A stretch of 64,000 nucleotides of DNA from an uncultured virus (IMG/VR IMGVR_UViG_3300042566_001492) (IMGVR_UViG_3300042566_001492), one strand, 5' to 3'; positions 9,257 through 21,192 are shown, counted from the first letter of the stretch. Program-made: numbers and translations. Notes: a model not told the origin generated them from the sequence alone.

Positions 9257-9257
<1 letters not shown>
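9039..9257 (-). CDS. Hypothetical protein with C-terminal KRDEKINQII motif
   Basis: ORF coupled to purA; C-terminal motif. Confidence 0.6.
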
Positions 9258-10947
<1,690 letters not shown>

Positions 10948-12984: not shown

Positions 12985-13224
12985 ATGAAAGAAAAGGAGA
13001 TTAAAAAAGAGAAACCGGTTAAAAAAACCAGAAGAAGTTCTAAAAAGAAAAAACTATATAGAACTGATATGAATATGTTTGTTTTTAATAACGAACAGAA
13101 GTTGGAAATCATAAAAGTTCCTAACAAATATGCTAAAAACTACATCACAGACTTTGGTGTTATGACTGTAAGAACCAGAGAAGAGATCGAAACTTGGTTA
13201 TACAATCTACAAATGCAATCATGA
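12985..13224 (+). CDS. Basic hypothetical protein
   Basis: Lys/Arg-rich N-terminus; ATGA overlap with rpiB. Confidence 0.55.
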   Translation: MKEKEIKKEKPVKKTRRSSKKKKLYRTDMNMFVFNNEQKLEIIKVPNKYAKNYITDFGVMTVRTREEIETWLYNLQMQS

Positions 13225-13670
13225 AAAGAATATCTTTAGGGTCCGACCACGCTGGTTGGAAATTAAAACAAGTAATTAAAGAGTACCTACATTCCAAAAC
13301 AGGATTAGATAGATTAGAAATCAATGACTGGGGATGTTATTCAGAAGAAAGATGTGACTATCCGGACTTCGCACATAAAGTAGCTGAAGATGTTGAAAAC
13401 AAAAAGTGTGACTTTGGAATTCTTATCTGTGGTTCAGGAAACGGAATAAATATGACAGCTAACAAATGGTCAGGAGTCAGATCAGCTCTTTGTTGGGAAT
13501 CAGAAATCTCACATATGGCTCGTTTACACAACGACGCAAACATTCTCACATTACCTGGAAGATATATCAGTGAAGAAGAAGCAATCAATTGTGTTGATGA
13601 ATTTATCAATACTAATTTCGAGGGTGGAAGACACTCAGATAGAGTTGATAAAATTTGTAAAAAAAATTAA
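13221..13670 (+). CDS. rpiB: Ribose-5-phosphate isomerase B
   Basis: GSDHAG, DYPD, ICGSGNG, ANK, ARLHNDAN, FEGGRH; start moved to the ATG at 13221. Confidence 0.96.
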   Translation: MKRISLGSDHAGWKLKQVIKEYLHSKTGLDRLEINDWGCYSEERCDYPDFAHKVAEDVENKKCDFGILICGSGNGINMTANKWSGVRSALCWESEISHMARLHNDANILTLPGRYISEEEAINCVDEFINTNFEGGRHSDRVDKICKKN

Positions 13671-14678: not shown

Positions 14679-15302
14679 ATGTCGTATTTAAAACTAATTC
14701 TTAATTTTATTAAGTATTTAATTATTGAAAATCCAATTAAACTAATAATGACAACGGCTGCTGTTGTGGCTTTTAACTATGCAGGCACTATCAAAGGTGG
14801 TTATGAATATTATAATATAGTATCACAAGTGAAAGATGGAAACACTTATGTTTATGTTACTAATTCTAAATCAGAAAGTAATAATGGTTATGAAGTATTT
14901 ACTTCAGATAAACCAGAAGTGATTAAGAATGAGCAACTTCAAGTTTGGGACTATAATGACGGAAACGTACTTCTTTATATTGTTGGTGGTATTTTAACTT
15001 TAATTATTTTAATTGGAACAATCGTAGGACTTACAAATGACGATGATGATATCGGATGGGATATTAAAAGTTGTTATCAAAGATCAATTTCAACACTTAT
15101 TTATTGTGAGTTAGAAGGAGATACTTATTATTATATGATAATGGGTAGATTGATTGATAAGCGAAAAGACCAAATTAGATACACGTCAAATGTAGCTAGA
15201 GAAATGAGAATTTTTGATATGTCGGATGTTTATAGACTTCCAAAATTTTCCACTAAAACTCAAAAAAGAAACAACAATTTAGATAAATTAGGTATAAATT
15301 AA
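14679..15302 (+). CDS. Membrane protein with C-terminal KRNNNLDKLGIN motif
   Basis: Two hydrophobic segments; C-terminal motif. Confidence 0.65.
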   Translation: MSYLKLILNFIKYLIIENPIKLIMTTAAVVAFNYAGTIKGGYEYYNIVSQVKDGNTYVYVTNSKSESNNGYEVFTSDKPEVIKNEQLQVWDYNDGNVLLYIVGGILTLIILIGTIVGLTNDDDDIGWDIKSCYQRSISTLIYCELEGDTYYYMIMGRLIDKRKDQIRYTSNVAREMRIFDMSDVYRLPKFSTKTQKRNNNLDKLGIN

Positions 15303-15307
15303 TAATT

Positions 15308-15559
15308 ATGGCATCAAAAAGTAAATCATCAGGTATCGGATTAACAGGAGTGTTATTCGTAGTATTTTTAGTTCTTAAATTAACTGGTAATATTGACTGG
15401 TCTTGGTGGTGGGTTACTTCGCCCCTTTGGATACCAATTGCAATAGCACTATCTACAGTTTTAATTATTTTTATAATCTTTATGTTGTTTATATCACTTG
15501 GATTTGACTTTGAAGTTGTAAAAGAAAAAATTGAAAATTTAACCAAAAAAATTCGATAA
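15308..15559 (+). CDS. Small membrane protein (IDWSWWWV..PLW type)
   Basis: LKLTGNIDWSWWWVTSPLW flanked by two TM segments. Confidence 0.75.
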   Translation: MASKSKSSGIGLTGVLFVVFLVLKLTGNIDWSWWWVTSPLWIPIAIALSTVLIIFIIFMLFISLGFDFEVVKEKIENLTKKIR

Positions 15560-15574
15560 TCTAAATATTTTTAC

Positions 15575-15582
15575 TATATTTG
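15575..15582 (+). promoter_or_regulatory. Bacteroidota -7 element TATATTTG driving the candidate ncRNA
   Basis: TAnnTTTG with no downstream ORF on the + strand. Confidence 0.55.
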
Positions 15583-15587
15583 TAGTA

Positions 15588-15833
15588 AGGTATTTAAGTT
15601 ATACCGAAATCCAAAATAACAAATATCCTGTAATAAGTCGAGACGGCAATCTTTGACAAATAATAGGCTAACCTTTGCCGAGGTTAGGGGATAATAAATC
15701 TGTTGGTCCCGCAGTAGATGTCAGTATCAGTCATATCGATACGGTCGAATTAAAAGGTGTATGACATAGGTAGATGAAATGTGAATTCTGAAACCAAATC
15801 TAAACCGAGTTGATTCACACGACTCGGTTTTTT
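15588..15833 (+). ncRNA. Candidate structured ncRNA with loop-loop pseudoknot (family unknown)
   Basis: ORF-free and GC-enriched, bounded by a promoter and a terminator; several stems; loops CGGCAA (15644-49) and TTGCCG (15675-80) are exact complements. Confidence 0.6.
15802..15833. terminator. Rho-independent terminator, probably bidirectional
   Basis: aaaccgagtt-N9-gactcggttt followed by a T run. Confidence 0.8.
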
Positions 15834-15837
15834 ATTT

Positions 15838-16110
15838 TTAAAGATATTTTAGTTCACCAGACCATCTTTTACCAAACTTAATACCTAACCAGTCTTGTTC
15901 TTTATCTAATTCTATTTCTGATAAATTTTCTTCTACGAACTGATTTGGAGTTTTACCATCGTAAAAGTAATTTATAATCTGGTCTTGATAAAAATCTATA
16001 ATTTTGTTTATTAATACTGGACTTATATCATATGTTTTCAATACATCGACAACTCCACTTACGAATTCAGATTCACTTCTATATGTCTCAAATGTTTTTA
16101 TGAACTTCAT
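15838..16110 (-). CDS. Leader-tagged hypothetical protein
   Basis: Start moved to MKFIKTFETY at 16110, directly after the upstream stop. Confidence 0.65.
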   Translation of the reverse strand: MKFIKTFETYRSESEFVSGVVDVLKTYDISPVLINKIIDFYQDQIINYFYDGKTPNQFVEENLSEIELDKEQDWLGIKFGKRWSGELKYL

Positions 16111-16111
16111 C

Positions 16112-16849
16112 TTACTTTTCATCAACTGAATATAAATTTCTATCAAGAATTATGTGAACATTAATATTAATATTTCTAAGTTTATCATAAGGCATCGCAG
16201 AACCAGCTACTAAGAATTCAACCATTAAGTCACCTGATGTATATTCTAAGTGATTTATTAATTTATAAGAAGCTTCTTCAACAACATCAACAATTTCAGA
16301 TTCATAATCTTCTAATTCTTTGTTAGGTCTAAGTGTTGATATTCTTTTATTATAAACTTCATTTTTATTAAATGAATATCTTAGTTGTAGATTACCTCTC
16401 CAAAGTTTTTCAACCTGTTTAAATAGTGATATTCTTATTTCTTGAGATTTGAAATTACCTTGTTTATCATCATCAATATCATATTCTTGGTCTTCACTAT
16501 CAGTATTTACTTTATTAATTTCAAATTCCATATCAATCAACTCAGCTAAACAATCTTCAACTAATGAAGTTTCCGCTTCGGTTAATCTATATGATTCTTT
16601 AATATCCTCAACTTTAGTAATACCTTTAGCTGGTGTTAAGTCTCTCATATCCGTTACTTCAGAAGGATTTCCCTTTTTTCTTCTTTCTTTCTTAAATGTA
16701 AATCCAACATCTCCAGATCCTTCCGTTCCGGTTGTTCCAGCTAAAGCACCTGGTTGAGCAGCAGTGACCGCACCCATACCAGCAGTTGATGAAGTAGTAG
16801 AAACAGCATTTTCTAAAAACTCTTTATATCGTTTAATCTTTTTCACCAA
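16112..16849 (-). CDS. Leader-tagged hypothetical protein with Ala/Gly/Thr-rich linker
   Basis: VKKIKRYKEFLE; low-complexity linker; acidic domain after IKES. Confidence 0.7.
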   Translation of the reverse strand: MVKKIKRYKEFLENAVSTTSSTAGMGAVTAAQPGALAGTTGTEGSGDVGFTFKKERRKKGNPSEVTDMRDLTPAKGITKVEDIKESYRLTEAETSLVEDCLAELIDMEFEINKVNTDSEDQEYDIDDDKQGNFKSQEIRISLFKQVEKLWRGNLQLRYSFNKNEVYNKRISTLRPNKELEDYESEIVDVVEEASYKLINHLEYTSGDLMVEFLVAGSAMPYDKLRNININVHIILDRNLYSVDEK

Positions 16850-20355: not shown

Positions 20356-21189
20356 ATGTTATTAAAAGTTGGAAGTAAAGGAGAAGATGTTAAAAAACTC
20401 CAATCAAAATTAGGACTAACAGCTGATGGTTCATTCGGACCAGGCACAGAAAAAGCTGTTAAAGCATGGCAAACAGCCAATGGATTAAAAGCGGATGGTA
20501 TCGTAGGTGACGGTACTTGGGCAAAAATGTTTAGTGGAGAAACACCAGCTACAAAACCAGCAGCGGCTCCGGTAGTAATTCCACCATCTGAATTTAAATT
20601 AGAAGCTCTTAAAGGACACGTTCCTGATGCAGTTATTGCTCAGATACCTGATACAGCTGCTAAATTTAATATTACAAATCCATTGAGATTAGCTCATTTC
20701 TTAGCTCAGTGTGGACACGAGTCTGGTGGGTTCAGAGCTGTTTCTGAAAACTTAAATTATTCAGCTAAAGGTTTATTAGGAACTTTTGGAAAATACTTTA
20801 ACTCAACAACAGCCGCTCAATATGAAAGAAAACCAGAAATGATTGCTTCAAGAGTTTATGGCGGAAGAATGGGTAATGGTGATGAGGCTTCTAAAGAAGG
20901 TTTTAAATTCAGAGGTAGGGGTTATATTCAATTAACCGGTAAATCAAACTATACTAACTTTACTAAATTTATCGGTGAAGATTGTATTGCTAATCCAGAT
21001 TTAGTTGCTACTAAATATCCTTTAGCATCAGCAGCATTCTTCTTCGATTCTAATAAATTATGGTCTATCTGTGATAAAGGTGCGACTGACGCTGATGTTA
21101 CTGCAGTTACAAAAAGAGTTAATGGTGGAACTATTGGATTAGCTGATAGAATTAAACACTTTAAAGAATATTACGCATTATTGAAATAA
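20356..21189 (+). CDS. Endolysin: peptidoglycan-binding domain plus GH19 (chitinase/lysozyme-like) domain
   Basis: ADGSFGPGT, GLKADGIVGDGTW; HFLAQCGHESG, FRGRGYIQLTG, TKRVNGG. Confidence 0.92.
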   Translation: MLLKVGSKGEDVKKLQSKLGLTADGSFGPGTEKAVKAWQTANGLKADGIVGDGTWAKMFSGETPATKPAAAPVVIPPSEFKLEALKGHVPDAVIAQIPDTAAKFNITNPLRLAHFLAQCGHESGGFRAVSENLNYSAKGLLGTFGKYFNSTTAAQYERKPEMIASRVYGGRMGNGDEASKEGFKFRGRGYIQLTGKSNYTNFTKFIGEDCIANPDLVATKYPLASAAFFFDSNKLWSICDKGATDADVTAVTKRVNGGTIGLADRIKHFKEYYALLK

Positions 21190-21192
21190 AAC

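Follow-up and report, generated by a model that had tools for sequence, protein, structure and literature searches.

A predicted free-standing RNA gene with two covarying loop-loop pairs in large freshwater phages of Bacteroidota

Positions 15587-15836 (+) of the window, by which we mean the whole 64,000-nt stretch of uncultured-virus DNA that was analyzed (IMGVR_UViG_3300042566_001492), very likely (probability above 0.9) constitute a free-standing, structure-constrained non-coding RNA gene that is independently transcribed. The predicted transcript is about 250 nt in length, with ends inferred from the promoter and the terminator, and it quite probably acts in trans. Its fold has two kissing loops that pair in full and, besides these, one or two pseudoknots; it is better conserved than the neighboring proteins and was found in roughly a hundred phage contigs from the environment. 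By the usual standard the RNA is a new class, having no Rfam model and no published description that we could find, and it belongs to a lineage of large freshwater Bacteroidota phages. It offers a marker for a jumbo-phage lineage of freshwater Bacteroidota, a compact target for cryo-EM or crystallography that is rich in covariation, and a test of whether quaternary contacts are the general rule for the loop-loop pairs of phage RNAs.

The RNA gene, its signals and its relatives

The RNA lies in a gap (15560-15837) that separates two genes, and no ORF of at least 30 aa was found between these positions on either strand. Across the 78 full-length homologues, the longest internal ORFs range from 23 to 76 aa and shift in strand and frame, indicating that there is no conserved coding inside the RNA. 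The GC content is 36.4% over 15587-15836 and 41.7% over its core part (15627-15765), relative to 29.7% for the window. An earlier reading made from the sequence alone had described an ORF-free, GC-enriched unit with its own promoter and terminator, and this description agrees with our data; as to the kind of RNA, that reading is largely correct. A covariance model of the RNA, R1, matches 15584-15840 (+) with 282 bits as its sole match within the window, and members of the family measure 250-279 nt (n = 78). The signals that delimit the transcript are as follows.

15552..15555 (+), -33-like promoter element, read by eye; TTCG here, with most homologues having TTTG or TTG
15575..15582 (+), -7 promoter box TATATTTG (TAnnTTTG), of the sigma-A type of Flavobacterium/Bacteroidota
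15802-12 / 15820-30 (+), P7, intrinsic terminator hairpin; 11 pairs and the 7-nt loop AUUCACA (15813-19) in the terminator scan
15831-40 (+), U-run after P7, seen as the T-run in the terminator scan

The TAnnTTTG box precedes P1, the first hairpin of the RNA, in 78/78 homologues, at a distance of 14 nt in 76 sequences and 13 nt in the other two, with a spacer that varies. The -33-like element overlaps the 3' end of the upstream gene. In PMC9723704, TAnnTTTG is given as the sigma-A box consensus of Flavobacterium at positions -12 to -5, which would place the start of transcription near 15587, two bases 5' of P1. A scan for sigma-70 promoters returned 12 sites vs. 9.2 expected and is uninformative here, since the host type uses another consensus. 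The terminator was identified in the window copy. In three studies, metatranscriptome libraries yielded assembled contigs that cover the RNA; because such contigs may hold DNA, this coverage shows presence only. One contig from an RNA library (X15, 15401-15790) bridges the upstream gene and the RNA, which read-through would also fit. The contigs of RNA libraries share a common stop near 15790-15792 in two studies and leave parts uncovered, neither of which we count as evidence.

When 15300-16100 was compared by blastn with 50,697 phage records, two uncultured GenBank phages (634 and 642 kb) were hit, with 75-79% identity and with alignments confined to the non-coding part. An 18-base pattern from the core of the RNA found six IMG/VR contigs, all of them true members, and a second pattern (eight stretches) added one true contig (L012) and one false one. 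With one degenerate letter, the core pattern returned 109 metagenome stretches and nine genome stretches, among which an nhmmer profile recognized 91 and one, respectively, as true homologues. Overall, the homologues therefore comprise two huge GenBank phages, seven IMG/VR contigs and 91 of the 109 metagenome stretches. Patterns that avoid the core gave no true homologue among the 100 stretches listed in a first search, and a second search that avoided stem P4 gave five among 79 stretches, all of them known contigs with the same core. All comparisons below use alignment A3, made with MAFFT from 78 distinct full-length sequences and not fitted to any structure. R1 detects the RNA once in the window and once in every one of four large phage records (155-642 kb). 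Identity is 82-88% for the RNA at loci where the proteins encoded on either side share 41-56%. The window itself is phage-like, with genes for a head maturation protease, endolysins and methyltransferases. Besides the RNA, the sole DNA match to a GenBank phage in its first 25 kb is an endolysin segment (20746-21191), which is 74% identical to LR756500 and falls on the endolysin gene at 20356-21189 (+). Among the relatives, an IMG/VR contig of 436 kb with an estimated completeness of 95% (L003 / G001) is classed as a provirus, which is unexpected at such a size.

The only hit in a bacterial genome is L129, a contig of a Bacteroidetes MAG (1-420). Its homology to the RNA ends at about nt 215, and the contig continues as rpsE from about codon 12. 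When compared with genomes of the same family, 38 of 40 match only from nt 195 on, and the RNA part matches none of the 40. The 41 genomes in this tally include one that is flagged as unpublished (G184), on which our reading of L129 does not depend. We considered L129 as a bacterial copy and read it instead as a mis-joined contig, since its RNA part is absent from the 40 family genomes; as a probable assembly chimera, it gives no evidence for a bacterial copy. A near-identical stretch occurs at the join, in the pseudoknot loop of the RNA and in rpsE codons ~12-18 of that family. The row was kept in A3, where it contributes unpaired cells in the 3' half. Under strict filters, R1 matched none of 150 other genomes sampled from the phylum of this MAG.

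The Rfam search suggested along with the sequence-only reading placed the RNA in no family. With the 4227 models of Rfam 15 at the gathering threshold, there was no match in the whole window, and with E-values of up to 10, 15450-15950 yielded only four sub-threshold matches, all on the terminator part (15765-15854). No description of the RNA was found in the literature searched; the catalog of 10,006 short RNA candidates in PMC10690425 could still hold fragments of it.

Comparative support for the fold

Single-sequence folding gave an MFE z-score of -1.6 for the + strand and -0.8 for the - strand, and 15 of 200 shuffles of the + strand folded as well as the native sequence. Since a single sequence is not significantly better folded than its shuffles, the case for a structure rests on comparison. 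In A3, 90.1% of the cells pair vs. 83.5% after shuffling, a level that none of 500 shuffles reached, and controls with slid partners paired at 35-41%. Double-sided changes occur at 49 of 75 pairs. G-U pairs are frequent (for example, GU 27 at columns 61-83 and UG 22 at columns 100-109), which fits an RNA read from the + strand. We consider this evidence, drawn from aligned sequences, to be decisive for a structure. In the predicted fold, the modules follow one another in a chain that starts with P1. Next come the P2/P2a arm and P3, joined by the loop-loop pair KL1, then the core, an H-type pseudoknot, and finally the P6/P6a arm with the terminator hairpin, joined by a second loop-loop pair, KL2.

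15589-93 / 15601-05 (+), P1 hairpin GGUAU/AUACC; 94.9% paired, three of five pairs covary
15606..15626 (+), J1/2, A-rich single-stranded joiner (AA.AA.AAAUAU) with invariant columns in A3
15627-31 / 15663-67 (+), P2, CCUGU/AUAGG; all five pairs covary
15632-36 / 15658-62 (+), P2 internal loop; AUAA identical in 78/78
15637-43 / 15650-57 (+), P2a hairpin with loop L2a, CGGCAA (15644-49); six of seven pairs covary
15668..15687 (+), P3 hairpin CUAACCU/AGGUUAG with loop L3, UUGCCG (15675-80); all seven pairs covary
15688..15719 (+), core: GGGAU (15688-92), A-rich linker, P4 and loop GUCCCG (15706-11); most conserved part, nearly invariant
15698-705 / 15712-19 (+), P4, AUCUGUUG/CAGUAGAU; 95% paired, nearly invariant
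15724-28 / 15738-42 (+), H-type pseudoknot, stem S1, GUAUC/GAUAC; 97.2% paired, all five pairs covary
15730-36 / 15759-65 (+), H-type pseudoknot, stem S2, GUCAUAU/GUAUGAC; 98.4% paired, six of seven pairs covary
15743-58 (+), A-rich third loop of the H-type pseudoknot
15769-71 / 15793-95 (+), P6, GGU/ACC; all three pairs covary
within 15769..15795 (+), P6 arm, 4x4 internal loop AGAU/UGAA
15776-78 / 15786-88 (+), P6a, GAA/UUC, with loop AUGUGAA (15779-85); 97.8% paired

All stems, hairpins and loops listed in the sequence-only reading were found at the positions it gives, and its two hairpins (P2a and P3), ggtat/atacc (P1) and gtcatat/gtatgac (S2) covary on A3. Its central proposal, a 6-bp kissing loop, proved to be real: in KL1, L2a (CGGCAA, 15644-49) and L3 (TTGCCG in the DNA, 15675-80) are exact reverse complements and the six positions are fully paired in all 78 sequences. 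Compensatory changes are seen at three of the six positions, where the pairs are CG in 77 and UA in one sequence, GC in 76 and AU in two, and CG in 70 and UA in eight. To the earlier list we add KL2, the H-type pseudoknot and a probable pseudoknot between GGGAU and the P4 loop. In KL2, the P6a loop contributes UGUGAA (15780-85) and the loop of P7, the terminator hairpin, contributes UUCACA (15814-19). Its elements are present in 76 of the 78 sequences, the exceptions being L073 and the chimeric L129; the central four pairs are Watson-Crick throughout, position 3 is UA in 57 sequences and CG in 19, and 2000 permutations never paired as well as the actual sequences. In KL1, complementarity extends over the full length of two 6-nt loops; in KL2, six bases of each of two 7-nt loops take part.

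The pairing of the core differs in part from what had been drawn. The P4 stem had been listed and is indeed 95% paired, but its near-invariance is in part due to the use of P4 as a search pattern. GGGAU is 100% paired with GUCCC (15706-10) in the P4 loop, and the two GGGGC variants keep both of the altered pairs through one-sided changes; judging from the alignment, the two elements probably form a second pseudoknot. The outer helix tatcct/gggata, which was to close a three-way junction around the two hairpins, is not supported. It is 98.3% pairable in A3, but it has no double change, it shares bases with the covarying P2 (15627-31 / 15663-67), and it is broken by the two GGGGC sequences, the sole ones that vary in GGGAU. 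For these reasons, we have replaced the three-way junction with the chain of modules given above. GGGAU (15688-15692) is complementary both to UAUCC (in the region 15624-15629) and to GUCCC (15706-15710), and the two pairings are mutually exclusive. From sequence, these alternative pairings of GGGAU could amount to a conformational switch.

Two internal loops deserve mention. In the P2 arm, AUAA stands opposite A/G-AA-U/A-A, and in 34 of the 78 sequences the loop resembles the UAA/GAN internal-loop motif. The internal loop of the P6 arm may be a tandem G.A, on a reading by eye.

Proposed mode of action and alternatives

We would give roughly even odds to a monomeric, clamped particle that acts in trans and binds a partner via the core. 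The RNA would be a monomer in which two loop-loop helices and the pseudoknots clamp a rigid body, with KL2 fastening the 3' terminator hairpin to that body. The invariant 30-nt core would form the working surface; the partner bound there, most likely a protein of the host or the phage and otherwise a small ligand, would be held or sequestered during infection. Such a stable folded particle would work in trans and would be no switch for a neighboring gene.

It is also possible, if somewhat doubtful, that one or both kissing pairs form between copies, and that the RNA assembles with itself in head-to-tail fashion, giving rings, chains or a cage. P3, P2, the internal loop and P2a would then make up a rod with complementary loops at its ends, and KL2 would provide a second, orthogonal connector. 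Each RNA carries two loop-loop pairs, with the fully complementary 6-nt loops of KL1 and the six bases of KL2, and intermolecular kissing loops have precedents in ROOL, GOLLD and manA, RNA-only homo-oligomers whose defined multimers rely on loop-loop and A-minor contacts between molecules. Bridge B4 of ROOL and bridge B7 of GOLLD are kissing loops that were found by covariation and later turned out to be intermolecular (PMC12286853), and in manA, pentamers and a 60-mer are assembled through two kissing loops between molecules, L5-L7' and L8-L9' (10.64898/2026.07.01.735769, a preprint). In the present family, P7 ranges from 10 to 24 predicted pairs, and the short linker shows no matching change in length (Spearman -0.01 with arm length, on fold-derived linker lengths that are unreliable); in the variants with a long P7, a fixed intramolecular KL2 would be an awkward fit. 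For KL1, helix lengths are suggestive. With A-form dimensions, the stack of P2a (7 bp), KL1 (6 bp) and P3 (7 bp) would measure ~56 Å, and P2 (5 bp) with the 5-nt internal loop could bridge at most ~45-49 Å. Closure of KL1 in cis would thus require a strong bend of about 120 degrees, with no linker between P2 and P3. Among the roles that the sequence-only reading had listed (protein decoy, antitoxin or anti-defense RNA, ribozyme, oligomerizing RNA), the oligomerizing one alone gains indirect support, from these precedents and helix lengths. Weighing against assembly, most known natural loop-loop pairs are intramolecular, including those of the lysine and purine riboswitches and of group I introns. 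In the P2 arm of the lysine riboswitch, a turn permits closure in cis, and the AUAA internal loop, invariant in 78/78, could likewise be a sharp turn that brings L2a and L3 of one molecule together.

The other readings are less probable. The sequence-only reading had judged a cis riboswitch unlikely, and the gene context bears this out. The nearest supported downstream gene is convergent at 46 of 62 loci, as it is in the window (15838-16146, -), and the nearest supported upstream gene is divergent at 27 of 58 loci and on the same strand at the other 31. The commonest upstream neighbors are a same-strand gene for an 83-aa protein (29 loci) and a divergent AdoMet decarboxylase gene (20 loci). 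Control of the downstream gene by a riboswitch or attenuator, or a role as a structured 3' UTR for the membrane-protein gene upstream, would find some support in the 16 of 62 loci at which a same-strand gene starts ~30 nt past the terminator, in the 83-aa gene itself and in the one RNA-library contig that spans this gene and the RNA. The layout of KL2 also recalls the guanidine-IV riboswitch, where the loop of the terminator hairpin is paired with that of another hairpin. However, the RNA has its own promoter box in 78/78 homologues, its flanks in LR756502 are unrelated and differ completely, and no riboswitch family of Rfam 15 was matched. Together with the convergent and divergent neighbors, these observations make a cis element quite improbable. 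A ribozyme, self-cleaving or otherwise catalytic, with the invariant core as its active site, is unlikely as well. Catalytic RNAs typically have pseudoknots, tertiary loop contacts and an invariant core, and the 30-nt core kept through 78/78 sequences would suit one, but no ribozyme family was matched at E-values of up to 10 and no conserved cleavage-site signature was recognized. Least probable is a signal at the DNA level (an origin, a packaging site or a protein-binding site) or conservation with no structural role. The z-score of -1.6 would allow for it, the folding being not significantly better than that of shuffles. Opposed to it are the double-sided changes at 49 of 75 pairs, set beside 35-41% pairing in the slid controls, the G-U pairs of the + strand, which are A-C mismatches on the other strand, and the promoter and terminator that frame the conserved block exactly. 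The covariation analysis has already largely refuted this reading.

The RNA resembles GOLLD and ROOL (as well as OLE and raiA) in that it is phage-linked and heavily structured, with A-rich joiners, covarying loop-loop pairs and an orphan function, and GOLLD and ROOL were likewise first found in lake and other metagenomes. It matches no model of these families, is about 250 nt in length whereas they exceed 500 nt, and they often lie beside tRNA genes, whereas ARAGORN detected neither tRNA nor tmRNA genes in the 64-kb window. Like manA, a phage-linked RNA of less than 200 nt, it has two separate loop-loop pairs per molecule; unlike manA, a putative 5' UTR element, it is free-standing with its own terminator, and Rfam returned no match. 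The pRNA of phi29-type phages is also a phage RNA with its own promoter and two mutually complementary loops, which in pRNA pair between copies into a ring on the packaging motor. Our RNA does not match its Rfam model and differs from it in fold, host phylum, genome size and gene context, and the loops of phi29 pRNA form four pairs, vs. the 6-7-nt loops seen here. The 3' module, consisting of the P6a loop and the P7 terminator loop, has the same layout as the guanidine-IV riboswitch, but it matches no family, sits at the 3' end of a larger RNA and, at 46 of 62 loci, is not followed by a same-strand gene. The L2-L3 contact of the lysine riboswitch is a 6-bp loop-loop helix between neighboring arms, one of which has an internal-loop turn, and KL1 is similarly a 6-bp loop helix with an internal loop in one arm. 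There is no homology to the lysine riboswitch and no regulated gene here, and the arms (5 + 7 bp vs. 7 bp) look too short for closure.

Should the favored clamped particle sequester a host factor, or should the RNA self-assemble, either would represent a new use of RNA by phages. Self-assembly would make this a further family of phage RNAs with an RNA-only quaternary structure, after GOLLD, ROOL and manA. In that case the terminator hairpin would itself be a connector, the GC-rich KL1 and the AU-rich KL2 would act as orthogonal pairs, and rings, filaments or a cage would be expected inside the infected cell.

Proteins encoded near the RNA

The gene upstream of the RNA (15308-15559, +) encodes the 83-aa membrane protein mentioned above, which belongs to phrog_1374, a PHROG with no assigned function. 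No gene for an RNA-binding protein was found beside the RNA gene, where the neighbors are a transmembrane protein, the AdoMet decarboxylase, an Smr protein, a zinc ribbon protein and unknowns. The S-adenosylmethionine decarboxylase (PF02675, E = 3e-26; L003:1926-2303, -) is the gene that lies divergent beside the RNA at 20 loci. Another neighbor, which we call c0, is near the RNA at 53 of 78 loci. It is one ORF of ~326 aa in most relatives and is split into 245 aa and 102 aa in the close relative L045 and in the window (15838-16849, -), as follows.

16112-16849 (-), 245-aa piece of c0
15838-16146 (-), 102-aa piece of c0

The protein has 306 relatives, all unnamed, and corresponds to no Pfam family, and an AF2 model of the protein (mean pLDDT 64.4) had no Foldseek match in the PDB at E <= 0.001. 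Its adjacency to the RNA may be plain synteny.

Elsewhere in the window, a gene at 9257-10543 (-) strongly matches phrog_1211 (E = 1.4e-116), for which PHROGs gives the label 2-aminooxy adenylosuccinate synthetase; this PurA/PurZ-like gene could be relevant to base modification or to the supply of nucleotides. Like the decarboxylase, a second metabolic gene is located close to the RNA, that for a ribose-5-phosphate isomerase B in the window (13194-13670, +; PF02502, E = 8.9e-56). Finally, several small proteins around the RNA that are otherwise unrelated have a similar N-terminus, M-K/R-x-L/I-K-x-F/Y-x-x-F, which occurs in the products of 15838-16146 and 16112-16849 and at loci L003, L004, L005 and L032, and which may be a signal shared within the phage lineage.
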